A DNA stretch of 64,000 bases from positions 1 through 64,000 of the forward strand of contig NMRA01000739.1 in NCBI GenBank assembly GCA_002633005.1, given 5' to 3'. Of this stretch, positions 833-58,937 are shown piece by piece (positions within the stretch are counted from its first letter, which is position 1; each line of letters starts with the position of its first letter). The position numbers and the translations under genes are program-made. The notes below the pieces were generated by a model, which ran no database searches, was not told the DNA's origin, and was given only the letters and a program-made list of their open reading frames with translations. The stretch comes from Phoronis australis. Its lineage: Eukaryota > Animalia > Phoronida.

Positions 833-1377
833 AGTCCATCGAGTGTTCAGCACTGTTGTCCGATCAGCAGGTGTCGCAAATCCGCCAGTACTTACCCAAC
901 AGGACGTTTAAATTGCTCTACCGAGCGACCCGTGACGGCATGGTGGGTACAGCTTTCCACCAACTGTGCGACAATAAGGGCCCGACTGTCACCATAGGTA
1001 AAGAAGCTACGAACGGCACGATATATGGGGGTTACGCATCTCGGTTCTGGGAATCAAGTGCATTTATGGACTACGGAAAAGACAGCGATGCGTTTTTGTT
1101 TCGTATTTGCGAATCGAATTGCGCCAGCAAACGATTTAACGTGAAGTCAACACTCAGCGATTTTGCTCTCTTTTTTCGAACCAGCAACGGGCCGTCGTTT
1201 GGCTTCAACCGAGACTTGAGTTTCTTCTCTGGATCCTACAGCTACAACGCAACCTCTAAGTACTTTGCCAGCGATGGTTACTGTTCCGAAATAAATCTCA
1301 CTTACTTCGGGTCACCTGTTGGTTGTGGACAAAATGTCAAATGGGCGGACGTCGAGGTTTATGCTGTTAACCCATAG
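833..1377 (+). CDS. Terminal exon of TLDc-domain gene, paralog 1 (upstream exons lie outside the window)
   Basis: Acceptor ttgtattccag|AG, phase 1. TLDc motifs LLYRATRDG, FHQLCDNKGPT, GGYAS, AFLFR, GPSFG, DVEVY. Stop TAG at 1375-1377. Closely similar to exon 38872-39428. Confidence 0.9.
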
Positions 1378-6385: not shown

Positions 6386-7119
6386 AAACTTTTAGCGCCC
6401 CCCATAACTACTTAATTAATTAACGTAATAAATACATAACGCCATAAATAATTACTTCACTTTACGTTACAACTCTAAAAAGAATTAATTTACGCGACTA
6501 CTACCTGTCACACTGAACAACAAGAGAGCCCCGTACATGTAGGTAATTTGGCTATGTAGTATCGGTGGTATATTTTCCATTGGATAAGTAAGGGGCTGGT
6601 ATTGAAAAGCTAACGCGCTAAATAAACTTGTTTTATCAGAAAATAATATTGACCAATTATGTTTCATTTTGAGGTGCATTAACACTTTAGCATCAATGCG
6701 TATCCTATGACATATAATTATTAATGTTGTCCGGGTACTGTTCAGACTGGCATGTTGTATGATTGCCATGTTTTTAAACGATCATCACAGTGTACATCAC
6801 CGCTGCACCAGGAACGAACACGACTCAAGCAGCAGTGACAGTATTCCCAGAGTACTGGGCCATCTGCACAGGAATGGCTTTGGTGGCAAACAATATTCTA
6901 TCCCTTCACATGCAGGTACATGTATGCTTTGAAGTCAAGCCAAGAAATGCTTGATTCCCAATGGAATCCAACCGGTTTTAAAGGGTTCCTGCCGTGAATT
7001 TTCTTAGTTTTTTTAAGTTTCAGTTAACATGACATGAATACCATACAAATTTGATTAAGTAAACACTTTTGTGCCAAATAGTCACGATTTTTACTTTTTT
7101 AAGAAACAAGTTAGTTGTA

Positions 7120-10103: not shown

Positions 10104-11186
10104 TACTACTCAAGTTTCCACCAAATGATGTAATGGGTGTAAGACGTTTGGTCAGTTGCATCTGCGGAAAAAAGCAGATCAGAAGACGAGGTCGATCTGT
10201 TGCTTGAACTGGACAGTTATTATGCAGGCAGAGACGGGCGTGGAAACGGGCATCACACTCAAGTACTTGAAGATCCAGACAATGAATTAAATTTCCCACT
10301 CAGCTAACTTTCGTCGGCTTTAAGGCCGTATGAGCCGCTCGATCCACTTGCACGAGAAATGCTACACACATACATGTATGTGAGCCACAACCAACTGAAC
10401 CAAGGGGCGGTCAATATTCACAAAACAGACACTTAATTCTCACTGACAAGAGCCACTGTATACTTGGGTGACTCGTGTAATTCTCCATGGCTATGATGGT
10501 ATGAAACCAGGGTGAAAACACAAAGCATTAGCCTATGTGTCTTAGCACTCCATCAAGAGACTGCATTACTCTATCTCTAGGACCAATTACTCCCAGCTCT
10601 ATCTGGAATGAAGGCTATTTGTGTGTTTGTTATAAAATTTGAAAATACACTTACATCGCAAAACCAATTTTGTGTTTGCTCAAAACACTATTCATTGATA
10701 TGTGCGGCTCACAAACCGATACTATTTCCGTTCAACTTTCGAGTATTTAGGAAATTTGAGCACAGAGACCTTCTCAGTCAAGTTGCTCTTACTACAGAGT
10801 CCACAAACGCACCTTTTATTTCTGAAAAAGGCGGCTGAGATGGCATTTCAACTATTACGTACAACTTCAATAACATAGTTTGAAAAATGGCTTGTTTCTT
10901 AGCAACAAATATATTAAAAGAATGTTAAATCACTTAAGATGTAAAATAAACTTCTTTTTGAGACACAGGGTCATGGTCTGAAATCTTTGAGTGGTATCCA
11001 GCGCCATCTTTTGTTTCCTTTTATCGGTAATCACACCAGTTTCAAAGGTAACAAAACAGAGAACGTTCAATAGAATACGTTTCCTAGGTACATGTATCAC
11101 TAAAATATGCTGCAGCTAATGCTGACAATTATACTGATGTAAATGATCATTATATATGTCACCGGCTTTTTGAAAAACATCACTAA

Positions 11187-14100: not shown

Positions 14101-14909
14101 GCCTTAATTTGCTTAGATTGCATATATTAAACGAATTCACGATGTATCCATCAGCAAACGAGGTCCATTAAATTCACTGACCATGGAAGCATGGGTGAAA
14201 ACAATAACGTAACCTGTCTGCAGTGCTTGGTAAGGGAGCTTTAAGCAACAAATAATTTTGAATAATGGTGGCCTTAATTTGCAATAATTATGCAAATTTA
14301 TCATGCAACAACATGCAAACTGATTTCATTGAACTAATTGACCATAGAAACATAGGTGCAAATATGATAATTCACCTGCGATGATTGGTACCATAGCTAT
14401 TGGAACAAGTAAAATTTTGAATAATGGCGGCCTTAATTTGCATAAGTTATGCAAATTGACGATGTGTCCACCCAAAAACTTTCACTATTAAATTCATTGA
14501 CCATGAAAACATGGGTTACAGCATCAAAATAACCTGTCAGCAGTGCTTGGTAAGGAAATTATAAGCAAAAATAGAATTTTGCATAATGGGGGTCTTAATT
14601 TGCATAAATTATGCAAATTGACAATGTTTTTACCAACAAACTTGTTCCATTAAAGTCACTGACCATGTAAACGTAGGTAAAACGTCAAAATAATCTGCCT
14701 GCAGTGCTTGGTAAAGAAATTATAGGCAAACATAGAATTTTGCATAATGGCGACCTTAATTCGCATATTCAAAAAAATTCTCAAGATTTGGGAACGGTCA
14801 CCCGCCTGATTTCTGATAACCAAACCTTAGGCTACATGAAACATCAAAGAATAAACTTTATCTGTCAAAACCAGGATAAGTAAAAAAACAGCATTTGGCT
14901 CCCGGACTA
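11187..14909 (-). mobile_element. Decayed Academ-type (XPG/Cys8) DNA transposon
   Basis: TIR t(a/g)gtccgggagcca...tggctcccggacta with flanks ctaa/ctat, and long subterminal inverted repeats. Minus-strand relics HEEASSII (~13080), LLPAHAL*GSNTLACYCGVGK (~12790-12855), LSPTIEAFTEN..RAHYQSVMW and IRCDCK match XPG-like nuclease and Cys-rich motifs. Confidence 0.75.
12313..13100 (-). pseudogene. Transposase relic (XPG-like nuclease and Cys-rich region) with stops and frameshifts
   Basis: The motifs listed for the Academ element fall in different reading frames and include an in-frame stop. Confidence 0.7.
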
Positions 14910-21770: not shown

Positions 21771-23397
21771 CAGTTCCAGGATTCTGAGTTGGGGGGTGGG
21801 TCTTTTGCCTGTCTGACATTCGCACCTCTGAACTGCCAATTGGAATGTGGGCGAAGGTCCTCCAGCCATAGTGCACGAAAGCTAATTGGGCCTGCCAAGA
21901 AATACTTCTGCTTGTGTCTAAGAACCTTTACTACAAAAGATAAGTTATGATTACAATTGCAAGCTACTCTTTACCTCGTAGGTAGAGTTCGAAATTATAT
22001 TTCCACGAGATTATGTAACGTTTGATTTTACCAGTCCGCCAGTGTTAAAAGGATATTAATCCTGTTTTGGTGATTTCAACTAATCCTTGTTCTGTCATTT
22101 ATAATGCATCATTGGTATCAATTTTGAAAGATAAAATCCGGAATTAACTCGTAAACCCAAATCTCACAAATTAGAAATTATGGTCCTTGGTGGGTGATGT
22201 TTTACAATAGTTACAGTATAATTTGGTAAAAGCGTATGTCACGCTTGCCCGTTTAGCAGACTTTGAAAGGAGTTATCAAATTTTCCTGGAAACGTTTGAG
22301 GGTTGTCGAGGTTTATAAAACATTTCATTATTTTGTGCAGTTAACTGGATAAGAAAGTCCAAAACTGTGTTTAGTATCCTTTTTATATCATCGAGAGAAA
22401 CTTGAAAAACTGAACAAAAAACAAGTTTATGCCATGTTTGGCCACTTTTGTCCGCTAAGTCATCAAATGGTAATTCCCAAATGTGAGGATACGCATAATC
22501 CGATTGGGTTGTTTAGTTAGACGACCAGTTTGCCGACCCAACTGCCAACCGCAGAATCGACTAAGCAGACCATGCCTGTATCCAGCATTGCTTGGGGGGA
22601 GGGTGGTTTGAATCTCTCGAACGGTTAATTTTAAGGCCTTTGAGGCAGCTTAATTAGAGAGAAGAAAAATCATTATACTCAACGATGATTCTATGTACGG
22701 TGTTTCTCAGAGGAGATGGGATTTGTAATATCAGAAATGAACATGCCGTGACGGTTGAGCGCAAAGAACGGGAATCAAAGTCGTATGTTAAGTGGTCCAG
22801 AAAGAGAACATTATAGCGTTACCTCCCGCCAAATTTTCAAATCAGACGTGCTTAAAATGAGTGCTTACACCTCATTAGGTACTCGGACGGAAATATTAGT
22901 AGGATTATGATTTGACGAAACTTTATCTAATTGTATTTTTACGTGTTACTTAAGTTTCTTACATCGCTGTAAATGGAAGCAGGATAATATTCTGAAGGAT
23001 CAATACTTTGAAGGTTTGCTAAACTAAAATGTCCAAAATTTTGGACTCGCTTGTGATTTTATACTTTTACTAGCAAAACTTAACAAATTACATCCGTTAT
23101 TATATGTACTGAGTGGTGTACATGTACCTATTCTGAAAACAACGCCTGGATACTAAAGCAATTTGTTTGGATTTCGTGCTCATTTGGAATTTACCGCATG
23201 TCTTACGAATACCGAAATGAGTACGTACTTGCATATTTTTAAAAATATGAAGTAGAAATATTCATGAATTATCAACCACGATACATTCATCACATTCATG
23301 ACAAGATCGCATCATTTCAAATCGGTGTACATGTACCTATATCGAAAACAACGCCGCCCAGGTACTAAAGCACTTTAATTGCTTTTGGATTACATGC

Positions 23398-24256: not shown

Positions 24257-24320
24257 ATGACGGGTATTCCATACTGGTGCTTTATCATAAGTCTTCTTGC
24301 GAGGGTGACGATTGCTGATG
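24257..24320 (+). CDS. Putative exon 1 (signal peptide) of multi-TLDc gene 2
   Basis: accatcATG start, encodes MTGIPYWCFIISLLARVTIAD plus one G, then donor gtatgt. Phase 1 matches the next exon. Hydrophobic core with small residues at -3/-1 (T-I-A). Confidence 0.6.
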
Positions 24321-25232
24321 GTATGTCGTTGTTATTCGTTTAAAGGTTGAAATTTTAAAGCTTGGACATGCTCTGACCACACTAAGAAGGCGTCAAATAG
24401 AAAACAGTGTTGCATGTAAGTTCTGATGTGGCGCAGTGTTTGGCAATAAAATTCATTTAAAATGTGCAAATTTCAAAATACCGAACGATGGTATTGTCTG
24501 CTGTAAGATTTCGGCTAATGATTTTTTAATCGCTATTGTTCAGTCACGAAAAACCTGTGTTGAATGAGTAGCTCACAGGTGTGTACGGTACTCTGGCTCT
24601 GTTTCTTACCGTGTGTTGCAATCACACTCTCTTCTTGTATGCCTCTTTTCCTGCTGTCACGTGTATTTTACTGTCATTTCGTTAAGTATATGTTCATTCT
24701 GCCTATTGCCTGACGATGAGACATGGAGTCGAATTATAGCCTGTGTTTGAATTTGTTTGTTATGTCTCTCCGTGTTTTACTACATAGCTTCACACCTGAA
24801 GAAAGGATATTGTTCCGACACTTCGAGCGAACCAATATCAAGCTTGCAAACAAAAAGGCTAGTCGTGTTTCCGACTAAGTTTGTGTAAACGAAGGGCAGC
24901 TACCGAACTATATTGGAATACATAAACATACGTGTACACATATTTCATTGAAGACACGACTTTTGCTTCGTTCTTACGAGTTTAATTTATTTCTTCCAAA
25001 CTCTCTAAATAGAAATCTTAATACAGTGTATGTTTACATCAGAGCAGTGCAATGAAAATTCAATCGACATCAGTAGGTAACAAAATTTACAAAGCGATAT
25101 TTCCAGACACATATCTCATCTTCAGGCTACTATTTACATGTACTACTAGTTCACAGTGAAACGCACATCAGAAAATTAATTACAAATGCATAGTAACACG
25201 TGAAGTTGGCATGCGCACCTATGACGATATAA

Positions 25233-25268
25233 ACACACACACGCGCGCGCACATACACACAAGCATAC

Positions 25269-25308
<40 letters not shown>

Positions 25309-25345
25309 GTATATATATATATATGTGTGTGTGTGTGTATGTATA
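25233..25345. repeat. Compound (AC)n/(AT)n/(GT)n microsatellite
   Basis: Visible directly; explains the IYIYIY ORFs. Confidence 0.95.
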
Positions 25346-26751
25346 AATATATACACTCTGCTGGGCATCATATTGCACAGATCAACTAATGATGGGGTCC
25401 TTCGAGTTCCACTAGCTGCTCATTCAAATTAGGTTTTTTAAACATTATTAGAAGCGACTGTGTACATAATTTTCAATGTAGCGAATGTCTGTGTTGTCAA
25501 CAGTCTCTTGCAACCGTAAACTTTTTGAAAATGGTCTTCTATAGAGTCATTTTGCAAATGCATTGAAAGTCGTCGCAAACAGGAGGAGACTGTGTGCCCA
25601 ATGTAATTTTGCTTTTCGTGATGACGAAAACATTCGACCGCGTGGCAGGGCAAGTGAACTCATAAACAACATTACATAACCACTTGAAAATTGAAACAAT
25701 ATAGAAATACAGTGAGTCTATGAAATAAGTTTTAAGCAAGTAGTCTAGCTTACAACACGTTATCATGTAGTCAGTCAACTAGCTGTATGAAGACTCTCGT
25801 TAAAATACAACTAGTTACCACAGTGTATTTTTCTTCCATAGACCCCGAAATTGCACACAGCCAGGGTAGTTCTGCTCGTCAACTCTCCGTGAAACCTGTA
25901 TCAGCGTCTAGAGCTAAAGACCACAAGGAGTGCATGTAAAATCTGGGAATAAATCGACACTCACCTTACCCGTTACAGCCGTTTAAGTGGAAAACAATCT
26001 AATAAACGTCACTTTTTTGCGTAATCCTCCGCCTTTTCTAACAAAGAAAAGTTATATCGTCATATTTAAAACAGTACGCTCGTAACACGCGCACGCGCCA
26101 TTTTCTTAATTTTGCGACATCTCTCGGGAGATGATGATTGCTTGGCAGAGCAGCAAAATTTCTTCTGAAATTCGGTTTTTCGGCATCAAAATTCTAAAAA
26201 CTTATAACGGAGTGAAACCTGTTCCGATAGTTTGTTGTGACGTATACGCAACCTCGTGAAAGAGTAACAGTTGATTGAAGAATCAGAGAAAAAGAAACTG
26301 GCCAATAGGTGACGCAATATTTCATGGAACTGAAAGCCATCGCTTAAGATCACTCCACAAATTTAGCAGCAGAATAACGTTAGAACGCGATTTTTTTTCC
26401 AACACCGTTAAATAATGCAAGGTAAACTGTAGTTTATAATGACAATAATTTTGTGTCAGATCTTATATTTAGTATACTGTTTGTACCAAGGCTAGTTATC
26501 ACGGTAAACTTCGAGCGTGAAAATATTGTCAGATAAAGTGGGTTACCACTGGTTAAAGGATCCGAACCTCACGACAACAGCATTCAAACTGGAGATCGAT
26601 GAAAATAAAAGATAAATTTCAGTGAATTAAAATGTGTTTTTATTGAAATTTGTGCGTCTGATTTTTCACGGAGTCTGAATGTGGGTACAATAACGTATGC
26701 TGAACATGCGATTATTGCGTGTACTCATTCTATTTTCACGCTGGAGGACAT

Positions 26752-26960
26752 CAGCTGCTGAATGGTAAAGTCGATGATTCGAAACTCTTGCGGAGAGTGT
26801 TCGAAACCGGCCTTGGGTTCCCGTCAAAATGTTTTTCCACACGCGTTGAATAACTGCACTGGCCATACCAGGCAGATAATATGGTACAAATATATATATA
26901 TATATATACACGCGCGCACGTACGCAGGCACGCACACACACACACACACACACACATATA
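26752..26960 (+). mobile_element. Probable tRNA-derived SINE with microsatellite tail
   Basis: A-box-like tgctgaatgg, B-box gttcgaaac, then (TA)n(CA)n. A 5'-truncated relative lies at 17094-17190. Confidence 0.5.
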
Positions 26961-29900
26961 CAGTTGTTATTAAAGGGACGTTGTCTGTTTTACCGTCGAA
27001 AAACATTTGAGAACTATTTTTTGACGGGACAGACATATAAAAGTTCTTAGCTTTGACCCGGGATACGTTTTATTACTGTGACTGTATTACAAGTCCACAA
27101 GAAAATTGATGACATCAACATCGATGTCTTTGCCCTTAATGGTACTTTGCCATCTACCGTATTCTGGCTAATCTGTGATAAAAATCTTTTCGTCGTGAGA
27201 AAGTAGTTTTAATTTTTTGTTTAGTTTAAGGAAATTCTGCCGTTGAAGGACCATCATGTTAGAAATACATTTTGATACTTTTGCGATTAAAGAAAGATGT
27301 GAAGATCTACTTAAAATTGTTGGAACCTTGTTGTTTACGAATGTTGATTGGGTTTGTATTGCTCAAGTTGGAACTGGAAAATATTTTAACAGTTTTCAGA
27401 AAATATTTAAACAACTGCCTATTCGACAGAATAAATTTTAATAAGGAGGTGGTCTTACGACCATGAATTTTCTGGTACACCGATTCTTCAGCCATTACAT
27501 GTATTGTATAGTTAGATGTTGCAAACCTCTAAACACCTGGTAGAGTCTTTCTCAGTTTTTTATAGGATAAGGAGCAATCTACTCGAATTTGGCAGTGCCA
27601 TTGATGTCGATGGTTTTGTTTAATGTTCACTTAGCTAACTGGTACAAACACAGCCACACTTGTATCAAATCAAAAATCAATTCTAAGCACAGGAAAATAC
27701 TTATACTGTGTAATTTTACTAAGTTTAATACAACAGTCTCTTAGATATCTAGCTGGATGCGGACTTGTCGATAATGCCTCTTGCTGATAATGCCCAAACA
27801 TAGTATATAGTAACCTAAAAACAGTTAAAAATTTTGCACTCACCTAGCGATGGTTCAAAGAGCTTCCTGCGTGCAGAGACAAATGCACAATCAAAACTAA
27901 GTTTTGAAACAGATTTTGTGGTGTGCAAGTTTTGCCAGATGTGCTCCAGTTGCAAGTGATTAAATTGTATGTTATGGGAAAATGAAATTATATTCGAATC
28001 CTAATAACTGCCAATCGTGACAGAAAAATTGCCAGATAGAATTTCCCAAGCCAGATGGCGATTCTACCTGGGAAGCCACACACTGCTTGTTGCAAGAATT
28101 CACGTCGATTTCTATTGCACACACGGAGACGTCGAGAATTTCAGGGCAAAGGGGTGTACCAAGGTGCATTGGCAAGAATCTTGGCCGTTAAATTTTCTAT
28201 AAAAGGCAAATGAAACATCACCCATATAATAATGCACATACTAGTACTTTGAACGCAAATTTAACCTGCTATTTAAAGTTGACAGAACGTTTGTAGAATA
28301 GGACTTCCATCTTTTAATCAGGAAGACATTAAACCAAAAACGTGACTTGTGCCTTCAGTCGTCGCATATGTCTCAATCCCGCATTGAACCCTTCTCAGTG
28401 TTGTGATATTTTGTTTGTCCGTCATAATGAATACCATGTGTTACACGTAAGTGTAGTATATTTTGAGCAATGTCATGGAGAGATTATTCGTGAATCGGTG
28501 AGAATTTTTACGTGAAATTGTAATGTCTTACGAACATCTGACAAATGCTGAGGGGTCGGAATTTCAGAGACTGATCCCTGTCGACTGCGAAACGACATTA
28601 TATTTCTGATCCTTCTGTGTAACGAAACTGCAAATACTAATCTTCTTTGTACAGTACATCTGTTGAAACTCAGTTGCACTAAGTCGTCATCGATTATTCG
28701 CACATCTCGACTCACAAAAACTTGAATACTTCCGTTCATTTTATGACAGCTGTGACTGCTTGCACGTATTTTACACAGAAGTGTTCCCCAATTTTTAACT
28801 TGTCCATAAATTGTTTTTCTGCACTAGTGCGACGCCTTGGAACTCACGCAAGGTAATTGCAATGCTTTGGGGATGTTTCAAGAGCTGTTGAAGACCCCTC
28901 AGAACTATGGCCATGAAGAGTAGTCACTGAAATACATTGCATGAGGTTTTAAGTGCTAATTCAGTTTTCTTAATGAGGATTAGAACAGACTAAATGGCAA
29001 TAATGAAACTGGTTCTCTGTCACTGAAACAGAGAACGTCCTACTCACCGTGTATTTTTAGGGTTTCTTCGTAAATATTTTTAATTTTTGTTAATAGGAAA
29101 GAATTTTCTTTAAGTTTCAAATATTAAAAAAACGAACTGTGAACTGGTCGCCACTTCGTCGATTAATCTTCCACAATGCAAAGCACGTCTCCTTATTTGG
29201 TATGGCAAGACATACACGTACTGTAGGCGCAACACATTTTCCTCAAGCACCTTCAAGCCACTGACCGTAAACGCATGCGCGCACATATAATACGTAGGAG
29301 GGGGATTAGAAACTCAGCGGAAACCACAAAGTTTTTTCTTCTCCCGTATTTAAGAAATCCTGAATTTTGTGATTTTTTCAGGAAAATTTCTCACAGGGAA
29401 AGTGAATTACTCTGTACTAGACTTTGGGAGATGATACTTTCATTAGAGATTATTCAAAAATATTTTGACGAGCTTTTAGAATTCCGATATTATCCCTCAC
29501 TACGGTAATCTACATGCCAGGTTCATCCGGAACAACGTAGGCAATTGTACTCGAGCACTCTCTTGTTTCTGTGCTCCATTCAAGAAAGGTCTCGTTCAAA
29601 AGCGAAACCAGTGTTCCGTAAGATGCATACCTAAATAGGAAAATTCATGACGATAAAATTCATCGTTATTCATCCTTTGGTCCCTTCTGGCATGATATGG
29701 AGCTTTGCTTTCATAAAATGTACAATAGTGAGACCAGAGGAACCCGTCCGAGGCTACCGGTACATGTACTTCTTCAAAAAGATTCTTATTGAATAAGCGT
29801 TTCTAAAGTCTGTGTTTTTGTGATTAGGAAATCCCGGGGAATTGATATTTTCGGTAAGCAGCAAATCAGATTTTGGAAAGTTGCTTTTTAAACTTGGTTT

Positions 29901-30236
29901 TTCGATTAATGTTATTTTAGCGTTTGTCAGAAGTTGACTGTGGGTTTATTTAAAGGGTTGTAATACTTTGAGATTGTGCATGGATGGAGAGAGAATGATT
30001 AAATCTAGTATACGATAACCACTAATTATAGCAAGTGAAACCCGTTTTTAATTAGGTACACTAACAATGAAGTAAAGCAGATACGCTAGCGCCCTCTGTA
30101 GGTATAAATTCAATCAATTAACCAAAAACAATCAAACGTCTTATTTGCTATCCAATCTGTAGAACTTGATGGTTGGATGACAGACATGTTGGTGAATCTT
30201 CAAACTAACACACACTGTACTGCAACAGTGTACTTG

Positions 30237-30350
30237 CTAGTCACAGTCCTTCGTGACGCAACACTTGCAGGCAGTATCTTCTACCGGTGAGTCCTCTTGC
30301 TGGTCACTGTTCCTCGTGACACAGCACTTGCAGGCAATATCTTACTACCC
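30237..30350. repeat. Two-copy ~62-bp tandem duplication
   Basis: tgct(a/g)gtcac..cgtgac(g/a)ca(a/g)cacttgcaggca(g/a)tatctt occurs twice. Confidence 0.75.
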
Positions 30351-33300
30351 ATTATACAAATGACAAGTCATTAGTTAGCTTCCTGTTCATTAACCCTTGA
30401 CCTTGCCCAGGCCCTCTTTAGATTCTTCCACGGAGATGGCTCTGTTGTACAATTTCTTGTGTACACTGTAGCAAGTCATGTATCTTCAACTACTAAGTAC
30501 CATCTTAGTATTTCCCAAACTTCTGTCCAAACTATAATGATGTACTTACGTATCGATGGATTAATAGAAACTGCATGATCTTATCTAATCATATTATTGA
30601 CAGTTAGATCTGCTCACAGAAAGTTCTAGAATCATTAGAGTGCACTGCACATTGATCACAGAACCAAAGTTTTAAACATCATCTAACAATAAATTTTGAC
30701 GTCCAAAATACATGATCAAACAATTAGCCCCATGGTTTAAAAGTACAACTCCACATATTTTTGGAAACTAAATTGATCTCTACCGCTTACGTAACCAATA
30801 GCCATTCTAACAATGATATTTACATGAAAAATGTTTCAGTTTCCCACACTTTTTGGCCGACAAATGGAATCAGATACAGTAGCACACCCATCTGCTTGCA
30901 CACCTTTTCTATTTCGATCTGCGTGGGAAAATGTTCAGGCTGTAGCTCTACGGTTTCTGCATGATAGCAAGTAGTAGCATATGTTAATAAAAACAGCGCC
31001 GGATTATGTATCTCTATTTGATGTTGGGCCTAGCAAGGTGGCCATTGTTTTTTTTTTTCTTGTGATGATGGCCTTTCCATGAACGCCGAAGCACCTCAAG
31101 CCATTTTAAATTCGTCGTAGTTTTTAGTAACATAGCTCTCCAACTCAAAATATAGTAAGCAACATTGCTGCACCCTAATAAAATACATAGCTATGCGATG
31201 ATGTGAGTGGACAATGCTGCATTTTAAATTATCATTGTTTATTTCCGACCTAGACAGGTGTAAGTGACCGACAAAGTTAGGTTTTTGTTGGGATTTGAAT
31301 TGATTATCTTGATTAATGCAACAATAATAAAACAACGACAGAGGGCGTGAAGTGCATATGGACGACACCACACCAACATATATTTTGAAGACCAAGATGA
31401 GAGATTGAATATAGATGTTAGGCATGCACATGTATTAATGAAAATCAAACGCAGGTAGTTTGAATGGTCTCAGCGTCCACATCTTTGTGGACTTGGTTAA
31501 TTAATTGTTCGTAGGAAGAATAAAACGAATCTATCGTCACATGAACGTCTGCCCTTCCAGAACCGCTAGCTGGCCTCTCAAATGCATGTCGCAAACAACG
31601 GCCGGGAGATGTCGACTATTCTTCAAGGTGAACGGTAACTGAGACTCGTTTCTTAAAATATTCTTCCCCACCCAGTACAGTCTCTAATAAATATCAATCA
31701 ATATTTTTACATTATCAACACGTGTGGCAAAAGTAATTCCATTTTTTAAAATAGAAATTTGTTTTCTCGTTTTGATTACTTTTTAGTCTCTGAGAATCTC
31801 TTGAAACCATCGCATGAGAAATAAAAACAACTGTTAACATCCATTCCATGAGAAAATCAAAAGACATCAAAGATCACTCCATGGGTCATCTTTTAGATTC
31901 AGCTTAAACTTTGAGTATACAATCGTGATGTGGCTCGGATACAAGAATCACCAATTTTCCACTTATTGACCTCTTAGTTTTTACTTACATGTATAGAAGC
32001 CTACAAAAGTTTACGAAAAAAACGTCGTGATTTTGCATACCGAAAACAACAATTTTTCAATATACATGTAAAAGCAGACGGATTGCATCCAATGGGAGAA
32101 AACACATCATGGTATTAGGAAGTGAGACATAAGGACAACCAACTAAATATGATACTAATAACCTCTCTGCAATCATCACGTAACAGGGGAGATGAATGTG
32201 GAAGCACTTTTTGTGGTGTTGAAAGTGGGTGTCACTCAAGTGTTTCTACAAGCCAGTTTTCGGGGCTTTGGACATTGAAAGACATGTTAATGGATAGACC
32301 TTGGATGTATGAAAAATTAAGAAATCTCTCGAATGGGCTTTTGTCATATTATGTTCTAAAAATGTTTCAATATTGCGTATTCTATACTTTCGAAACTAAT
32401 GCTTTTTGGAATTTCGTTACATTTAAAATGGTTTCAAAAAGAAATAATTAAAAAGAATCAAAAGTTTAGAGACCATTAGGGTGTCTGACGTACCTACACA
32501 CCATTTCATCAATTGAAAGATCATAACTGACCTCTGGTTAGAGATTAGGGACTGGGAGTCAAGGGTCATTAAATATTTACCTGGAGCCAAATATCGAGAC
32601 GGTTGATGCCCTTACAGAAATTTTTAGGCTGACATGAATGAATCATGTCATTTTAATGAAATATTTCAATTTCTGTACCATTTAAAGACAATTTAGTTTT
32701 TACATGTATTTATAAACTGTTATTTTGCTTTAAGGATTCGAGAAAAGATGAAGTGATCGAACCGCAAACAAAATTTTGAATTCAAAAATTTTAGTCACAG
32801 GAAAAACTAAGATAAAAAAATACCAAAATGACAGGGTGCGTTCAAAAGTTATGGCTATTTACATATACATGTATGAATCACATTTTGACTTACCATGTTG
32901 ATTAGGTCGGCCATCTTGGATGTCAGCGGGAAAAGGTTACGAGTTTAAAAGTGCTTAAACATAATTTTTACAAGTGCCCCATCAGTACCTCAGTAATATT
33001 TAGGGAGACATACTCTTACCTACCATTCTGTGCAATCCAAGAGTTTACACCAGAATCAAATCACGCCTGTGTATTTTATGGAGTGATTAGCGTGCTCACA
33101 ATTCACGTTGGATAACATCGAAACTTTTCCGAATTGAAATACAACATTGTCATCAATGAAGACTTAACTATAATACATTTATAGACACACTGGTGCAGAA
33201 AAGCAGCTCTGTACAATTTAGCGGTGCTTGTGACATCACAATATTATAAACCTTCTATTCATTTCAGTGTGAAGTGTCCATTCACTTGACATCCACTATG

Positions 33301-35957
33301 GTAAACTGCACTTCTTCTTTTGAAATCATTTTTGTTTGAAAGTACACTTTTGTTCAAGGTATGACTATCTGTGACAACAGGACAAAGATTTTCTAAATGT
33401 TATGCATAAATTGTGATTTTGATTCAACTTACTTTCTACCTCAAGATGTACCAAAGCAACTAAGTGTAAAAGATCTATTACTTGATTTACAGAAAATGAT
33501 TACATTTAAATTATGAATTGCGAAGCTTGGTCGAACCCTTCTGCCTCATAGCTTCATAGGTTTTATTACCATGGTTGTCAAATTTTAGTTAAAGGGGATT
33601 CCTTTATCGTACTCAGTCGCCATGGTAACAATTATGCATGTCTACTTTTATACTTAACGTGAGGTTGGTTCAGCCTGCATTGTTGGAATTTTCACATTGC
33701 AAGTGCATTTTAAGTTACTTTTTGTGGCAAAAGATTGTTATGATCGTTTTAGTCTATATATTAATTTGTACTGAGATAACTTTGCCTGAGCTACAGTGAA
33801 AGCTTGAAACCCCTGCGTTCAATATTTTTAAGAAATGTGGTATTTATCTCTTATTGGAGTGTAGCAACAAGTTACAAAAGCATAATTGGGTGGACCCGAT
33901 TAAATATAAAAATGGCAAACTCAGATAAAAATGACTTCTTATATTCTATGTAAAGATTACCAGGTAATAAAATGGACGTTGCCAAGACACAGCATCAGTT
34001 TGCTTGTGGGGGAGGGACACGGGTTAGACGCAATAACACTCTCCAGGGTGCTAAAACTGCCTTGATGAGGCAGCGCAGGTTATACTCGTTCGAAAACATG
34101 CATGCAACTAATAATATTCTTTGGCCGAATTACATGTAGAAGTAACAAGAGGAAAACAGAACCGACGCTAAAGTGCACCATTCACACGGCGTTTAGGTAT
34201 TAAAAGCCATAATCAAGTACAATAGTAGACAGAAAACAATTATTGTAACAGAAATTAGATTAATATCGAAACCTCGTTCTCAAACATGAATGGGCCATTG
34301 TTTCCTCGATGGAAGCGTTTTGGCCAAATTTGATGAAATTTCACCAAAGATATCTGGTTAAAATGAGTGCTACCGGGGGGGCCTGCAGTAGTCGAAGTAT
34401 TTAAAATTTTAAGTAGGCTGATTTGATCACCATAGGTGCATAGTTACAAAATTAATGTATCACTTTCTGAGGTATACGACAGGCACTGTTAAGTACGCCA
34501 TGGTGTGAATTTTCAATCGGTTGTTGCTTGATAACAAACAAAAAGCCCATTTTCATTTCTATTATTTAATTTTCCCAGTCAGACAGCAATTCGACGAAAA
34601 TTAGAATAAGGAATCACCAGCACCCGGCAAAGGGACCCCCCAGAGACCCCCAAAACGGCTAAAATCAAATACAAAAATAGGGCAAAAATTACTGAACTTC
34701 GGCACTTCAGTGAAAGTTAACGGAAACCCCCCTCAAAATCCAAAGGCTGTCATCTGATAGAGAAGTTCATTCTCTACACAAACGTTATATTTTTTTTCTT
34801 CTAAGCAGTTTTAAAACCAATTGAATACTTTTGCACCAAAAATGGGTCTTTTTGGGCCAAAGGGATTCCTGACACTTTATCTTGAATAATAATTGCCCAA
34901 AAATTCAAAATAAATGTTTTAAATATATCTCCCCAGGATGCATGTACACACATTTTTAACATATGAGTCGGTGGCCCTAGTGTTGACCTGTTGATGCTCT
35001 CGTGAAATGAAAGTTAACAGGTTTATAGATTAGTGAGTATAGACCTGGTCACACCAAACTCCATCCGAAGCACTTCAGATATTTACACATCTTCAAAAGT
35101 TATTTTCAAATGTAATCGTTGCCTGTGCGTTTGGAAACTTGCCACTCTGTTCTTCTGGCAGCGTTCCGTAGATCAGATTTCTTTCGACACGAGCAAGATA
35201 GCGAGTATTTATAAGTTATTTTAAAGTCTCGAGAGTGAAGGACACGTTGTTTCAAAACCTTACCGGAGTAACTTAGGGAAATGGCGACCACTGAAGAGAT
35301 TGGTCGACAATGTATTGAAATACTTGGAATAACACGTTGGAGTTGAATTATCGTATAGAATTCAATGCTTCATAAGTTACGTGTTTTCGCTGCAAGTGTA
35401 AGCAACTGCCTTGGTTGAATGTAACCCGGCCGAGAAGTTGCCAAGGTGTTCGAATGACCAACCCTGATCTCAGGATGCCCGCTGTTGAGTTGTTGGGGAC
35501 CCTGTGCCGTGAACGACATACACAAAGGCCGGGTGCATTGTTTGTTTTGTTTTGGGACAACTTAAGGAGTGCAAAACACAAACAGATTATCTAATTGTTT
35601 CCTAGTCGCAGTAAAATTCAAACAAAACGTGTAAGACCAGTGCAACTATAAACTTTTGATGCACAACCAACACAACGAAAGCAAAAACTTTATGCACGCA
35701 GCTTAAAGCAGTTTACTTTGAGCTTTGGGCGCCCAAACTAAGACGTTGGCGCCCTTCCTTGGCAGGACTTCTCAGGGGAAGCATCCCAGTTACACCGTCA
35801 CTGTCTGTCGCCTATATTAAAACAGAACTCACGTGCACAGGACCACCTAATCAATGACGAAAAGAGATGGTTCATATCGAAGTTTTGTCATACCCATGTG
35901 ATCGATGAAAAGTTTCTTTATCATCTTCAACACTATCAGTTCTTCCATTGTTTCCAG

Positions 35958-36473
35958 AGTTCATCGAAGACTCACAGTTGTTGACAGCTCAACATTTATC
36001 CCAACTACGGCAGTACATGAGTGTTCCAGAGAAGACGTTTCGATTGCTGTATCGAGCTACGCGTGATGGCATGGTAGGCAAAATATTTCACAGGCTATGC
36101 GACAAACAGGGGCCTACCATCACCATAGGTCGCAAAGCTAATACTCAAACCGTTTACGGCGGATACACAGCTAGAGCTTGGTCAGGATCTCAAAGCGTAG
36201 CCGCCGATAAGAATGCCTTCATCTTCCGTCTGTGTGGCTCACAAGAATGCACAAGTGCAATGTATTCACAAACAGTACCTTCTAAAGCTATTGTGGATTT
36301 TTCGACCTGTGGGCCAGCATTTGGAGGCGGCGACTTGATTTTCTTTAACAGGTATCTCAGTTACAACAAAGAACTCACCTCCGATGGATTCTGCTCAAGA
36401 CACCACTACAACGGTTCACTCGATTGTGGGTACCGCGTCACATGGGAGGACATAGAGGTATACGGCCTCGCAG
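35958..36473 (+). CDS. Multi-TLDc gene 2, TLDc domain 1 exon
   Basis: tttccag|AG ... GCAG|gtaagt; 516 nt, phase 1-1; full TLDc motif set. Confidence 0.9.
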
Positions 36474-36796
36474 GTAAGTCAGTGGATCGAAGTCGAAATT
36501 TCTTTAGCCTATTACACAATGACTATAAGTGGTTGTAGCTGCCGTTGTTTTAGATTGTATCTTATTGGTGTTGTTATTGACTATCCTAAAAGTTTGCTAT
36601 GTCCCCTTTTAAAGGAAGGAACGTGATGTTGATCGACGATGCTTTTGAATGTCTTACAAGCATCATTTTGTCTTGTGGTCCATCGCTATCCATTCTCAGT
36701 GGTGTGAGTTTCTTGAGAGATGCTTTCCATAGTTTTAACAACGTCGTAGTTGTAAAACTTATGGCAAAGTTTGTGTGAATTATTATCATTTTTCAG

Positions 36797-37336
36797 AATT
36801 CATAGAAGACTCTAAACTCATGACAAGTATAGATCTTAGAAAGCTGCAATTGTACATGCGCGTACCAGCCAAAAGTGTTAAGTTGATGTACCGTGCCACG
36901 CGAGACGGTATGTCGGGACAAGCTTTTCACCACTTCGTCAACAAAATAGGTTCCACGATAACTATTGGCCGGGAGGCAACCACCGGCAACCTCTACGGTG
37001 CGTATACGTCCAGGTCTTGGAAAAGTACCAATGGTCACGGTCTTGACATCAGAGCTTTCCTGTTCCGCCTGTGTGGGCAAGGGTGTAGAAGCCGAAAATT
37101 CGAACTTAAATCATCACGACGTCCGTATGCTGTCTACGATCATTCAAACTATGGACCCACGTTTGGTTTCAACCATGACCTGACGTTTTTTGCGGGAGCA
37201 TACAGCTACAACACAACTTCCAAGTATTTTGCTACAAATGGGCAGTGCTCAGAGTCCGACAAAACGTATGATGGTGGACCAGTTGGCTGTGGATCCAACG
37301 TTAAATGGATTGACGTGGAGACGTACAGGGTTGAAG
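36797..37336 (+). CDS. Multi-TLDc gene 2, TLDc domain 2 exon
   Basis: ttttcag|AA ... GAAG|gtaaat; 540 nt, phase 1-1. Confidence 0.9.
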
Positions 37337-38024
37337 GTAAATTCACCAGAGGGAAAGAAGTTGCCAACTGGCCCTCTATTTTATAGACTGGCTAAATTAG
37401 ACAATGTTAAATCCATCATTGTGATCGGATATGTCTTTTTACAGCTTAAATCGTAAATGCCGTCATCGTCTTCTGACAAAAAGTACAAATTATGTCTTTT
37501 CAAAAACGTACTTAACATATGAAACTGACAGAAGAGGAATATGGTTGTCCTTTAGCAACAGCCAGTTCTCTTCCGTAACTACAAACAGATGTTGCGAAAT
37601 CAATGTTTAACTGTTTCATACTTTACTAGGCTTTCATCTGTGTCTTTAAATCCCGTTGCTTGAAAGTTTCACAGTATCACTAGATTTGCATGCTCTTTCC
37701 GGAGACATTTTTCATACTTTCTTGGAACAGTTGTCTCGCTGGGACTGGAAGTCACGTGTTTGCATTTAGGCTCGTACTTGCCAACATTATGTTGTGTAGT
37801 TTGAGATTCGAAATAACGAAACGAGTTGTTTATGTGTAGCCTAAACCTTTTTTTACTTTTGATCCAAGTTTGGTAACAAAGAAATCACAAGTTTAAGATG
37901 ACACCACGTTCACTTCTATTTCGTGACAGGGTGGAAATTACTTTAAGTTACGAATTCCCAGCCTCTGGGATTACGGTTGTAATGGTTATTATACTGTCTA
38001 TTTCACCAGAGTTGACAATTTCAG

Positions 38025-38558
38025 AGTACATAGAAGATTCCCACCTCTTATCAACCCATCAACTGACACAGTTAAGGCAATACATACCAGACAAGAAGAT
38101 GAAGTTGCTGTACCGCGCCACAGTCGACGGAATGTCAAACAACGTCTTTCATTCTCTATGCGGCTGGAAAGGTCCCACACTCAGCGTAGGACTCGAGGCT
38201 ACTAAAGGCACCGTCTACGCTGGATATACATCTAGATCATGGATACTATCCGGAGGGTATGCTTCTGACAACAATCCCTTCCTTCTACGCTTGTGTGGCC
38301 CAGAATGCACCAGTAGGCGATTCAACCAGATATCAGCTAAACGTCAGTATGCTGTTAACGATGATTCCAACAAGGGACCTACATTTGGTGATGGTCATGA
38401 CCTAACGTTCTTCGCTGGAAGTTATAGCTACAACGCAACATCAAAATACTTTGCTACCAATGGTTACTGCTCTGGGGGTGACAACACGTATGATGGAGGA
38501 TCAGTAGGTTGCGGGACAAGTGTCAAGTGGACGGATATTGAAGTTTACGGCGTCGAAG
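38025..38558 (+). CDS. Multi-TLDc gene 2, TLDc domain 3 exon
   Basis: tttcag|AG ... GAAG|gtaagg; 534 nt, phase 1-1. An in-frame alternative acceptor would start the exon at 38010. Confidence 0.9.
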
Positions 38559-38871
38559 GTAAGGCATAAGCGGAGGTAATGAAGGTTGAAAAAAGTGAAC
38601 TACGTTAAACGGACTACAATAATTAATCTCAGAAAGCGCTTTAACAGTTGCTGGGATCGTTTTCGCCAATTTTACGTTGTTTGCGTGAAAGTGTTTCACT
38701 TACAGCCGAAATTCATTTTTGCTTTCTTGTATTTTCATAATGTTTCTGACTCCCTAGTAAAACAACGCTTTTTGAAATGAACTGGACTATGCCAGGAGCA
38801 GTTTCATACCAATGTATGTATATTCAAGAACATCTTAATTACTGTACACGAACGTTTACATTGTATTCCAG

Positions 38872-39428
38872 AGTCCATCGAGAATTCACCACTGTTGTCC
38901 AGTCAGCAGGTGTCGCAAATCCGCCAATACTTACCCAACAAGGAGTTTAAATTGCTCTACCGTGCAACCGGTGACGGCATGTCGGGTACAACTTTCCATC
39001 AACTGTGCGACTTTAAGGGTCCGACTATCAGCATAGGTCGAGAAGCTACGACACACACTGTTTACGGGGGTTATGCATCTCGGTTTTGGGAATCAAGTGG
39101 AGGGGGGACATACAAAGAAGACAGAAATGCGTTTTTGTTTCGTGTTTGCGAATCGACTTGTACCAGTAAAAGGTTCAACTTGATGCCGATTCTCAGCGAT
39201 TTTGCTCTATATTTTCGAACGAACTACGGTCCGACGTTTGGTGGTAACCGAGGCTTGATGTTCTTCTATGGCTCCTACAGCTTCAACACAGCCTCTAAGT
39301 ACTTTGCCAGCAATGGTTACTGTTTCGATAAAGATCTCACGTACATCGGGGGACCACTTGGTTGTGGGTTTTATGTCAAATGGACGGACGTAGAGGTTTA
39401 CGCTGTTAACGAAAATCCGTATAATTAG
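38872..39428 (+). CDS. Multi-TLDc gene 2, terminal TLDc domain 4 exon
   Basis: ttgtattccag|AG, phase 1; stop TAG at 39426-39428. Confidence 0.9.
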
Positions 39429-40299
39429 CCCGATGATGAGTTTCTAATAGTCTATTGCCTTAAACGACTTACTCTTACTGTAATGACGTAAGCAAAATAT
39501 CACTTCGAGCCCCAAAAGTTGTCGTTCCAATAGTAATATGAAGTGTCCGTCTGTTCTGTCAGTTTGAGATGTCGACCCCCATAATAATATGGGGCCCTTT
39601 CTAACATTACCGAAATGCGGGACCCCCTTTTAAGACGGAGTTCCGATCTTTGCTCAGTGTGTGGCAGGGTTCTCATTATCATTATGACGTATCCGCTTTT
39701 TTGTGACCTTAGGATTGGACCCTTCTCTTAATGTGAGTGGCTGAAACTGGCTAACTGGCGACATGAATCTTTAAAGTCACTGCAGCCGTTATGAGAATTT
39801 TCTTCACGTTTGACAGCGTGGACCTAATGAGAGGTGCATGTGTATTATGAATGGTACATTTCTTGTCAAATAAAGGGTAATGGTTAACAAGACTTCTTCA
39901 TCTCCACGAAAATATGAACATCCTCCATGTGAGCTGCATTTGGGAGATTACCTTTCTCTTCGATAAAGTGACTAAAATTGTCTTCGTCCACACGACTAAA
40001 CAAACCTGTCCCCGGCGTAAAAATCTCTTTTACCTCCTCAGGAAAATTCAGAAGCCCCAATAGGGCATTATGGGATTGAATACTGCATGCCTACGATTAT
40101 CGCTTTAAAACTGCTATGAGCCAGCGTTCTGTACAAGTTTCGAATTCGAGCACTTCCCAATAGAAGTTCGGTCCCTTGTTGCTTGGCAAACTGAAAACAA
40201 ATTATGGTAATGAAGAAAACTGACATTTCCTGTTTATTCGAGACCATGCACAGATCATAAAGTGAAATATCATGACAAACCAATCCAGTTTGTTCACCT

Positions 40300-40447
40300 C
40301 AGGGCCAGATCCATGATTAAGAGCTACGGGGGGCCAGGGCAGAGGATTTTGACCGTCAGACATTCGCACCCCCGAACTGCCAAATGAAATCTGGGAGAAT
40401 TTTAGGGGGTTCATGGCCCCCTTGGCCCCCCTCTCAATCCGCCACTG
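40300..40447. mobile_element. Short hAT-like MITE; related copies at ~21766-21860 and 50198-50353 (inverted)
   Basis: Ends cagggccagatcc...aatccgccactg and a shared core gtc(a/t)gacattcgcacc..gaactgccaa. No TSD found. Confidence 0.6.
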
Positions 40448-48410: not shown

Positions 48411-50295
48411 AATTCGCGTGTACAACGCCAAATTTGGTTGGGCTCAATCATTTGGGTTATCTAAAACATTGACGCAAGGCGTCGTTACTGAAAAGGCAGT
48501 TTCACTGCTCTAAAAACATTTGTCGATAAAAATTCCGACGCACGGTGATTAGGCGGCTATTTTTGGGCCTCGCTGAAGTTTCAGTCTGGTTCATTAGCCG
48601 AGCCAAATAGCGTCCCCAGCCAAAAAATCATCCAAAAATCTAATTCAAATCCAACGACAACGTTTCATTATGGCTGCATACAGTATATGTACACTGAGAG
48701 CTAAGGTCTTTACAGTAAATTGCTGTCCTAACATCGAGTATGCGTTTTTACTGACACTGTCTGCTCGTAGCGTTTAACTCTCCGTTGCTGCCGGTCGTAG
48801 CGTAAAATTTGCATTTTGCGATACAGTCCTTACCTCAAGTTCAGTGTCCACCGTTATTTTCCAGTGTTCTGATGAACACAGGGAAATGTTTCTATTGTTA
48901 TTTGCAGTCCAAAAGCTAAAACGCGAAGACAGACGAAGAAAACTAACAAATTTATCGAAGCTAAAACGACACAGTGCTGCAGCCAATGGGAATGTTTCGA
49001 TTTTTATTTTCCCGGATTGTTTCTAAGTTTCCGATAAACTTTTGATATTATCGCATGGTTCAGTGTTTTAACTTGTATATTTCACAAACTAAAAATACTG
49101 ATCAATTTATTATGAAACAAAAGTTTGCTAGTAATTCAACACTTTCACAGATTGTCTTGTCGCTAAACCGGCTTGGGTACCGTACTTGGCATATATAGGA
49201 CGTCATATAACAACAACCCGGATCACACCGCAATAAGGTATTGCCACGATGATGCAAATAAGTCCATTTTTATAGGATTTAATTCAAAAGAGGGCGCTGT
49301 AAGTGTATTCAGTTTTGGTGTCGCAACATGACAGCCTGACATGGCAAAACTGTTTTCTTCTTGCTAGTTACCTGTAACGTCCTTCGATGTTTGACTTTAT
49401 GAAATTGTTGGCGCTTCAGAGTACATTACGTGGAAGTAGTCTGAAATTTGGTAAATCAAAATCTCCAATATCCCATGTGAGCTCCAGGGTTGTTTAAGCG
49501 TGAGACATCTGGTCATTAATAGACCTAATTTACACAAGCATCAAATCTAAAATTTCTATCAAATAATTAAAAATTTTGCTATGCTTTCTGCGACGAAAAT
49601 TAATACTTTTGGGTCTTTGACTTCAAAATTTTTGTGAACTATTCACTGCAACCATAAACACTTTGAATAGTACTCGAAGGACTATGACCTCCTGGATTCT
49701 TATCAAAGACATGTTTCTGTTAAAACGCTCATGTATTCAACAGGTACAAGGCATAATTGTCCTATTATCTGTACCACTTGTAGAAAAGAGGTACAATTTT
49801 ACTAGTGAAACATGCAGGTTTAGAAATTTAAGGACGTTTTAAAATGTAAATATGGTCATAATTACGAATTCAAATAAAATGAAGTTTGCCAACAACAAAT
49901 TACTCTTAGTAAACCTGTCAGGAGGTGTTATCGCGGTCACATGTGTCGAAAAGATAACGCCTCACGATCACTTACGATAACTGAACACAGTCCCTTTTGA
50001 CACGTTCTATGTGTTAGTCGGAAAGATTCATCGATGCAACTCGCCGTATTTTCATCTCGGAGAACCTTGTGCCAACATGCAACTAGATGATTACTCTCCT
50101 ACAATGTTTGATTAGCTAGCGGCAAATAAGAGGTGAGCAGGTGTGGACTATTCCTAACAAGATTTTACGCAAGACAAGATCAGTAGTCGACAATGAACAT
50201 TGGCGAATTTAGAGGGGGCCAAGGGGGTCATGCCCCCCCCCCCCTAAAATTCTCCCAATTTTCATTTCGCAGTACGGGAGTGATGATGTCTGACA

Positions 50296-58817: not shown

Positions 58818-58937
58818 TCAGATTAACCACCATTAATTTCCCGTTAGCAGGCATCACTGTTTAATTTTGAAAATTCTAAAACTGTCAGTTAGTTTCATGT
58901 TCATGGTATTTGCCGCATGACGACGATATTTTTTCAG

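Follow-up and report, generated by a model that had tools for sequence, protein, structure and literature searches.

A candidate secreted protein of four tandem TLDc domains encoded in Phoronis australis

RESULTS AND DISCUSSION

Gene structure and coding frame

The window, the whole 64,000-nucleotide stretch of DNA that was analyzed, carries on its forward strand a gene with five coding exons of 64, 516, 540, 534, and 557 nt. The coding part of exon 1 (24257..24320, +) encodes a 21-codon signal-peptide-like leader, whose ATG lies within a ACCATCATG context, and ends in a phase-1 donor. Intron 1 (24321..35957, +; 11,637 nt, GT-AG) is repeat-rich, and a scan across it found neither an N gap nor a TLDc exon or remnant. 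Beyond it, on the same strand, exon 2 (35958..36473) encodes TLDc domain 1 (D1; 171 aa, 6 Cys), exon 3 (36797..37336) encodes domain 2 (D2; 179 aa), exon 4 (38025..38558) encodes domain 3 (D3; 177 aa), and the coding part of exon 5 (38872..39428) encodes domain 4 (D4; 184 aa) and the stop. A probable 3' UTR region, with AATAAA at 39869, occupies 39429..40263 (+). An alternative in-frame acceptor of exon 4 at 38010 (AG before it) would add 5 residues; acceptor 38025 is the choice of a paralogous transcript contig.

All four introns are GT-AG and in phase 1, the eight splice sites are all canonical, and the spliced exons sum to 2211 nt, translated as 736 aa with a single stop at the end. This architecture is real. 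The initial annotation, which had described four TLDc exons with canonical splice sites joined by phase-1 introns, was correct in each respect, and its single 736-aa frame lacking a transmembrane (TM) segment or KDEL was borne out by translation and a hydropathy scan.

The last exon of an upstream tandem paralog lies at 833..1377 (+). It is an intact TLDc exon of the domain 4 type with the same acceptor, and the remaining exons of the paralog lie outside the window. The paralog and the gene are 83.6% identical in the exon, 85.8% in the intron, and 80.5% in the UTR. The dN/dS between the paralogs (0.60) indicates fast change, and between domains pN is 0.26 to 0.35 and pS 0.71 to 0.87, which indicates purifying selection. 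This dN/dS is below 1, and relaxed constraint and diversification fit it equally. The locus almost certainly belongs to a real gene family. Twenty-four other long open reading frames (ORFs) matched no Pfam family, an Rfam search gave no match, and a search with the MFS ORF returned no relatives.

TLDc identity and family cysteines

In the Pfam TLD (PF07534) scan that had been proposed as a check, all five TLDc exons of the window scored 62 to 71 bits, and the four exons of the gene (62 to 67 bits) were all above the curated gathering score of 24.5 bits. The predicted structure of domain 3 (pLDDT 96) is a plain TLDc fold. Six of 48,161 chains had a Z of at least 5 to this model, all of them TLDc proteins (top Z, 19.6), and only TLDc clusters were matched in the Atlas. 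Lectin folds showed only weak likeness to the model, with Z under 5. A fibrinogen-related likeness (E of about 0.1) obtained with an early, poor model was dropped when the good model gave a Z of 3.3.

Core TLDc residues are conserved in the window domains, which are basic and rich in aromatic residues (pI 7.0 to 9.5; 22 to 33 aromatic residues each). In domain 3 numbering, cysteines at positions 90, 148, and 162 are present in all five window domains (D1 to D4 and the paralog exon), and a cysteine at 94 is present in four of the five, being one column off in D1. Those four columns hold cysteine in 0/90, 0/21, 0/89, and 1/91 of the outside TLDc domains with a residue there, and the C-x3/4-C motif was found in none of 207 outside sequences. 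Domain 2 lacks the core FHxxC cysteine, which the other four domains have, but keeps the four family cysteines. In the domain 3 model, the elements flanked by these cysteine pairs are a beta hairpin and the loop preceding the last strand. The four family cysteines likely form two disulfides per domain. These cysteines, the paralog last exon at 833-1377, and the coincidence of the domain end with an inferred IFI44-like exon border are new.

Relatives of the window domains

The nearest sequences found (P0003 to P0017) are Met-initial TLDc ORFs with 33 to 45% identity to the window domains, which we take to be mollusc IFI44-like first exons. A quick tree grouped the window TLDc domains with this nearest clade, whose members are unnamed, at a support of 76. 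A Gly or Ser occupies the position of the window's phase-1 GT in 17/17 nearest-clade ORFs and in 3/86 others with the end motif. The ORFs taken as IFI44-like thus seem to share this phase-1 exon end with the window domains, as judged from read-through peptides rather than DNA. As in the window gene, TLDc stands at the front of IFI44/IFI44L (TLDC5) and of invertebrate IFI44-like proteins. In contrast to these proteins, the window protein has no C-terminal MMR_HSR1 GTPase-like domain; it has four TLDc copies that fill the product up to the stop, a signal-like leader, and four extra cysteines. The oyster protein CgIFI44L-1, which combines TLDc with MMR_HSR1, is described as haemocyte-rich and cytoplasmic (PMC11682996).

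The fold is also like that of the V-ATPase-binding proteins OXR1, NCOA7, TBC1D24, TLDC2, mEAK7, yeast Oxr1p, and Rtc5p (Z 14.5 to 19.6; rmsd 2.1 to 2.4 A), although the window domains are only 17 to 20% identical to them. Proteins of this group are described as intracellular, with one C-terminal TLDc (10.1101/2025.05.24.655954). They have neither a leader nor the disulfide pattern, whereas the window gene has four TLDc domains behind a signal-like leader. NCOA7 G815 is reported as required for V-ATPase binding (PMC8608904). Equivalents placed by motif and spacing are present in 5/5 window domains for G815 and in 4/5 for G845, both of which are also structural; the E938 equivalent is mostly kept, and the S817 equivalent is Val in 2/5.

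Predicted secretion

The leader is the top 19-residue hydropathy window of the 736-aa product (1.47). The best internal window reaches 1.09 and the C-terminus is NPYN, which together argue that the product has no TM segment, KDEL, or GPI-like tail. Three N-glycosylation sequons are present, so that the product combines the features expected of a secretory protein (no TM or retention signal, paired cysteines, and sequons). The leader has a modest hydrophobic core and no basic N-region, and by sequence alone exon 1 is not unique, ranking 10th in hydrophobicity among 150 ATG-to-phase-1-donor candidates. The frame upstream of the ATG is open for 20 codons; therefore, an N-terminal extension or a signal anchor is possible. 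The leader ends in SLLARVTIA in the window gene and in CLLARLSNA in seven translated RNA reads of run X3, and small residues at -3 and -1 are kept across three leader versions. A hydrophobic core likewise persists in the paralog leaders. Secretion of the 736-aa protein is predicted, and we consider it very probable.

Transcripts of close copies

Transcript contigs came from one source (X1) and raw RNA reads from three others (X2 to X4); among the RNA runs listed, the best word share was 0.05, so that none matched the stretch closely. A 173-nt X1 contig (depth 17.9) jumps from 24318 to 35956 and skips 11,637 bases, the predicted length of intron 1. Its exon 1 side differs at 10/110 letters and thus represents a 91%-identical copy, and the close copy is transcribed from at least 24209. 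A paralogous X1 contig of 1,323 nt (depth 190) contains the leader, a D1-type domain, a D2-type domain, and then 20 letters of a D3 start, which agree with the window at 18/20. Related leaders also precede 35956 in X1 contigs, and the seven raw X3 reads carry a related leader with an agreement of 1.0.

The window copy itself is represented by 98% pieces at depths of 2 and 8, compared with 73 to 266 for paralogs. Near-identical raw reads (23/36 in X2, 17/66 in X3, and 6/14 in X4) include intronic ones, and many come from the other strand, relative to the paralog reads. No spliced reads with at least 99% identity to the window copy and no D3-D4 joint were seen in the RNA records examined.

The proposal that a 64-nt signal-peptide-like exon with a phase-1 donor lies 11.6 kb upstream of the TLDc exons is thus upheld by a leader-D1 joint in a close-copy transcript. 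For the 24320/35958 junction, the exact jump was recovered from the 91%-identical copy and not from spliced reads of the window copy. Joining of the four exons in one transcript was seen from the leader to the start of D3 in the paralog contig, but not across the D3-D4 joint.

A proposed secreted multivalent binding protein and its alternatives

The signal-like exon, the spliced copies, and the extra cysteine pairs suggest that an intracellular-type module likely became a secreted multi-headed binder. We propose that the gene encodes a secreted multivalent four-TLDc binding protein (recognition or agglutinating) that arose by exon duplication and probably serves in defense, a reading to which we assign a probability of about 0.5. 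The initial annotation had suggested that the TLDc fold was repurposed as a multivalent extracellular module. This suggestion fits, and its extracellular part stays a prediction; the RNA joints in close copies and the family cysteine signature back the gene model, the assignment to TLDc, and a design for secretion. Among the components of the proposal, binding rather than catalysis is the probable role, and a defense function is somewhat favored if the gene family, secretion, and binding are granted.

In the proposed sequence of events, an IFI44-like one-exon TLDc that already ended in a phase-1 donor would have gained a phase-1 acceptor, making TLDc a freely duplicable 1-1 exon. This exon would then have landed behind a signal exon and been copied four times, after which the whole gene was duplicated. 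The leader would be cleaved after Ala20, and the protein would exit via the secretory route, in which C90-C94 and C148-C162 (domain 3 numbers) may pair and close two loops. Four heads, almost free of linkers, could then bind a repeated ligand with avidity, candidate ligands being a glycan or a surface protein of microbes, and variable loops near 71-80, 101-110, and 151-160 might set specificity.

The protein might instead be secreted to build or cross-link mucus, cuticle, shell, or adhesive, its disulfide-stabilized heads binding polymers of the host matrix or one another without any part in immunity. This reading would draw on the same secretory evidence, and the depth of paralog contigs in X1 (190 to 266) and the basic, aromatic-rich domains would suit it. 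However, a scan of the 736 aa found none of the low-complexity, coiled-coil, or collagen stretches of matrix proteins, and the fast paralog turnover and probable descent from an immune-type TLDc also make a matrix function unlikely.

We consider it quite unlikely that the family is real but the window copy is a fading duplicate, or that the leader is an uncleaved anchor retaining the protein in the secretory pathway or membrane. The low depth, the lack of near-identical spliced reads, a D1 exon that falls 8 codons short of its counterpart in the highly expressed paralog, and the open frame upstream of the ATG point in this direction. However, the 736-codon frame and all eight splice sites are intact, the 91%-identical copy is spliced, and the -3 and -1 residues are conserved in the leader versions.

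It is very improbable that the protein acts outside the cell as an antioxidant or buffers redox state there, with the old FHxxC cysteine serving four times per chain and the reported oxidative-stress role of TLDc proteins preserved. TLDc domains are described as guarding against oxidative stress (PMC5614904), and the core residues and, in 4/5 domains, the core cysteine are conserved. However, that review reports that no enzymatic activity was found and that cysteine oxidation was outside the catalytic range (PMC5614904); moreover, domain 2 lacks the core cysteine, and variable loops would be superfluous for an antioxidant. The G815 equivalent in 5/5 domains would agree with a secreted effector or toxin that still binds V-ATPase, or some other protein, in a microbe, in prey, or in a neighboring cell. 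This reading is very improbable, because the local bend of two helices also requires that glycine, which shows no variation among outside TLDc domains, V1 faces the cytosol, the 736 residues hold no entry or pore module, identity to V-ATPase binders is low, and the S817 equivalent is replaced by Val in two domains.

Returning to the secreted binding protein, a broader reading is offered tentatively: in an animal lineage, an immune-type (IFI44-like) TLDc exon became a disulfide-stabilized shuffled block and then expanded into a secreted family whose members recognize ligands through four heads and carry fast-changing loops. The same reading would make TLDc at its root a general ligand-binding head, with V-ATPase as one target, which is likewise speculative. 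To our knowledge, every characterized TLDc protein is intracellular. The field now defines TLDc as a V-ATPase-binding module (PMC8608904; PMC13570293). A secreted TLDc-only family could not meet cytosolic V1 as usual and would therefore provide a clean test of the idea of a general-recognition fold. Soluble multivalent TLDc proteins are suited to glycan arrays and pull-downs. The gene would also be a neat example of a cytosolic domain that was turned into a module, as a 1-1 exon, and relocated to the extracellular space. If the broader reading is true, the family would add a new class to the pattern-recognition or agglutinating proteins of invertebrates.

Comparison with other tandem-repeat proteins

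Secreted tandem-repeat recognition proteins of invertebrates include multi-CRD C-type lectins, tandem galectins, and FREPs. They share with the window gene a signal exon (predicted here), one domain per 1-1 exon, avidity through repetition (proposed here), and clustered paralogs, but their folds are unrelated to TLDc, whose ligand role here is predicted.

The supposition that no such family had been described agrees with a search of open literature, judged by title or start of abstract among the papers listed, which found no published secreted TLDc family. Nothing was found in that search on extracellular tandem TLDc, mollusc proteome TLD, or giant virus TLD, although genome or proteome tables could list such proteins. 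No window-family member was found among 429 matches from 1,319 near-length protein candidates (best, 45% identity) or among 79 TLDc loci of a metagenome scan. A search of longer proteins gave 2 matches among 578 candidates (TLD + FN3 and BTB + TLD), which argues only weakly that the family is absent there, and full-length animal relatives with this layout may exist. No TLDc loci were found in a search of prokaryote genomes.

Viral contigs yielded three TLDc loci. Tandem or outward-facing TLDc is not unique in the sequences surveyed, though undescribed in print as far as found. The uncharacterized ORFs of the giant-virus-like loci L002, L008, and L081 (the record of L081 names it as viral, and L002 and L008 are inferred to be so) place TLDc among lectin-type modules or, as in the window gene, in tandem, and they offer sequence-level parallels for the idea of a multivalent module. 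Unlike the window gene, the ORFs of these and of protist-type loci are intronless, mix TLDc with PA14, F5/8, link, LamG, or B-box, and lack the cysteine motif; their tandem TLDc is of separate origin. L008 has four tandem TLDc domains, and the protist-type ORFs of L040, L060, and L068 combine a B-box with TLDc x2. Hydrophobic N-termini occur in L002 and L081 ORFs, and L002 carries three related signal-bearing ORFs with the domain orders TLDc x2; F5/8 + TLDc + link + PA14; and PA14 + PAN + LamG.

Gene structure and domain architecture

The gene lies on the forward (+) strand. A leader exon (24257-24320), which encodes a signal-peptide-like sequence and ends at a phase-1 donor, precedes four large exons: D1 (35958-36473), D2 (36797-37336), D3 (38025-38558), and D4 (38872-39428). 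The five joined exons total 2,211 nt and encode 736 residues with a single stop at the end. All four introns are GT-AG and phase 1, and each large exon encodes a complete Pfam TLD domain that scores above the curated threshold. Thus, the tandem four-domain frame proposed in the initial annotation was borne out by both conceptual splicing and domain content, as was its claim that the protein has no transmembrane segment or KDEL: the leader was the most hydrophobic stretch of the product, and scanning all 736 residues revealed neither an internal transmembrane-like window nor a C-terminal retention signal. A fifth exon with a whole TLD domain above the cut-off, absent from that annotation, was found at 833-1377; a six-frame profile search of the window detected no TLDc pieces beyond these five exons. 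Read-through of the D3 donor (38559-38569) runs for three codons before a stop; a retained D3 intron would therefore yield a clean three-domain form. With about 39% GC and long, repeat-rich introns, the window resembles eukaryotic genomic DNA of the animal type.

Transcription of the family

Among 150 candidate ATG-to-donor micro-exons, the first exon ranked only 10th on sequence alone; the choice of so distant an exon is decided by RNA joints. Four runs (X1 to X4) of organism A, possibly Phoronis australis and possibly a close relative, were compared. The data type of X1 was guessed to be RNA, with which its spliced joints are consistent. One X1 contig joins 24318 to 35956, omitting 11,637 bases, the predicted length of intron 1. 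Because 10 of 110 letters on its exon 1 side differ from the window, this contig derives from a close paralog or allele; the five exon 1 differences listed correspond to T2K, G3T, I11V, and one silent change. The proposed 24320/35958 junction was thus seen in a close copy but not in this very copy. Seven raw X3 RNA reads, in full agreement, carry by translation a leader-end variant before 35956 with small residues at -3 and -1.

A 1,323-nt X1 contig (depth, 190) has 221 letters preceding D1, matches D1 and D2 piecewise, and terminates in 20 letters of which 18 are identical to the start of exon 4, which selects the acceptor at 38025. Joining of all exons in one transcript, as initially proposed, is therefore supported from the leader to the start of D3 in a paralog, but the D3-D4 joint was in no record of the four runs. 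Pieces 98% identical to this copy had depths of 2 and 8, versus 73 to 266 for paralogs. Near-identical raw reads were scarce (23/36, 17/66, and 6/14 of those aligned from X2 to X4), some were intronic, and they were often on the strand opposite to paralog reads. The gene family is transcribed with the leader-TLDc layout, on records of close paralogs rather than of this very copy.

In sparse near-identical reads over exon-intron borders and the 3' region (36385-36658, 38303-38987, and 39262-39800), the first mate maps to the + strand, the reverse of the orientation seen in spliced paralog reads; low antisense transcription is possible there.

Fold and family cysteines

The window domains are 50 to 58% identical to D3, retain core TLDc residues, and form a single clade (SH-aLRT, 100; quick tree of 125 rows). 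The D3 model (pLDDT, 96) was built on 96 rows, in which the 5 window domains were aligned with 91 outside proteins selected for coverage from 120 listed matches and 6 extra cluster members. It resembled TLDc structures alone (Z, 14.5 to 19.6; next best, 4.9).

Four cysteines (D3 positions 90, 94, 148, and 162) set the family apart. Cys90 and Cys162 occur in 5/5 window domains and in 0/90 and 0/89 outside domains, respectively; Cys94 in 4/5 (one column off in D1) and 1/91; and Cys148 in 5/5 and 0/21, with 70 rows gapped at that position. The first motif (C-x3/4-C) was found in 0 of 207 outside sequences, and a loose pattern of the second pair, matched regardless of position, in 7 of 207. In the model, a short hairpin turn separates the cysteines of the first pair, and those of the second flank the loop before the last strand, an arrangement that would fit two disulfides per domain. 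These cysteines are the best leader-independent evidence for life outside the cytosol.

Duplication history and origin

Synonymous sites between window domains are near saturation, with pN of 0.26 to 0.35, indicating that the duplications are old and under purifying selection; dN/dS could be computed for 4 of 9 pairs and was 0.10 to 0.16. The exon at 833-1377 is a D4 paralog sharing its acceptor and 3' region. It belongs to the end of an upstream tandem paralog (670-2231: intron end, D4-type exon, and 3' region) that resembles 38694-40263 at 76%, and the gene cluster extends past the window's left edge. Between D4 and this exon dN/dS was 0.60, and exon identity (83.6%) was on a par with that of the flanking intron (85.8%) and the UTR (80.5%). 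Across the five domains, variation peaks in blocks 71-80, 101-110, and 151-160. This pattern could reflect diversifying heads or, equally well, relaxed constraint.

The closest database matches (33 to 45% identity) are TLDc ORFs that begin with Met; we take them to represent the first exon of mollusc IFI44-like genes. At the position corresponding to read-through of the phase-1 GT donor in the window, Gly/Ser is present in 17 of 17 nearest-clade ORFs versus 3 of 86 other matches bearing the end motif (17 without it were left out of the count). If that label is right, it would, with the read-through peptides and a tree support of 76, link the window domains to IFI44-like TLDc, and gain of a phase-1 acceptor would have sufficed to turn the ancestor into a 1-1 module.

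Relation to other TLDc proteins and possible function

The gene family is real and arranges a known domain in a new architecture; it belongs to the TLDc domain family but to neither the OXR1/NCOA7 nor the IFI44 protein families. In the available text of six papers (PMC13570293, 10.1101/2025.05.24.655954, PMC5614904, PMC8608904, PMC8329711, PMC11682996), characterized TLDc proteins are intracellular with one TLDc each, V-ATPase binding is described (including PMC13570293 and PMC8608904), no enzymatic activity is demonstrated (including PMC5614904), and IFI44 is a distant member with an N-terminal TLDc. Oyster IFI44L-1, with TLDc plus MMR_HSR1, is described there as cytoplasmic (PMC11682996). 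The terms "secreted" and "extracellular" are absent from the available text of PMC13570293, as are "secret" and "extracellular" from that of PMC5614904.

The initial annotation knew of no described family of this kind. A search of open-access main articles likewise yielded no secreted or tandem TLDc family among the matches listed. Parallels among 79 metagenomic loci and in a giant-virus record temper the claim of uniqueness. Giant-virus-like ORFs carry up to four tandem TLDc domains amid PA14, F5/8, link, PAN, LamG, and glycine-rich modules: a 2,719-residue ORF with four in tandem (L008:6041-14200); three related ORFs with hydrophobic N termini (L002:5825-15631; TLDc x2, F5/8 + TLDc + PA14 + link domain, and PA14 + PAN + LamG); and, in a giant-virus record, an ORF with a hydrophobic N terminus and a C-terminal TLDc (L081:1250-3298). 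Three contigs encode a B-box zinc finger plus two tandem TLDc domains in a TRIM-like layout (L060:148-2334, L068:124-2298, and L040:11-1570). These ORFs are uncharacterized and, unlike the window family, lack the Cys motif; a search for papers on a giant-virus TLD domain found none. Judged by layout, TLDc occupies the sites of ligand-binding heads in these ORFs, which by analogy supports a binding role.

We consider a secreted multivalent binder, probably in defense, the likeliest reading, with about an even chance of being correct and with both secretion and binding predicted. The main rival, that the product is a matrix or mucus protein, seems unlikely.

Other features of the window

A 337-codon MFS transporter frame (58880-59893) scored 32.8 bits against Pfam MFS_1, slightly below the cut-off, and had no relatives among 1,939 candidates. 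Two large inverted-repeat structures, at 7113-10110 (arms of about 1.2 kb, 81%) and 11211-14875 (0.6 kb, 82%, with 161-bp tandem units), are probably nonautonomous transposons. A short interspersed repeat (40343-40447, 21803-21855, and 50198-50294) is highly abundant in the RNA runs, with hundreds of reads.
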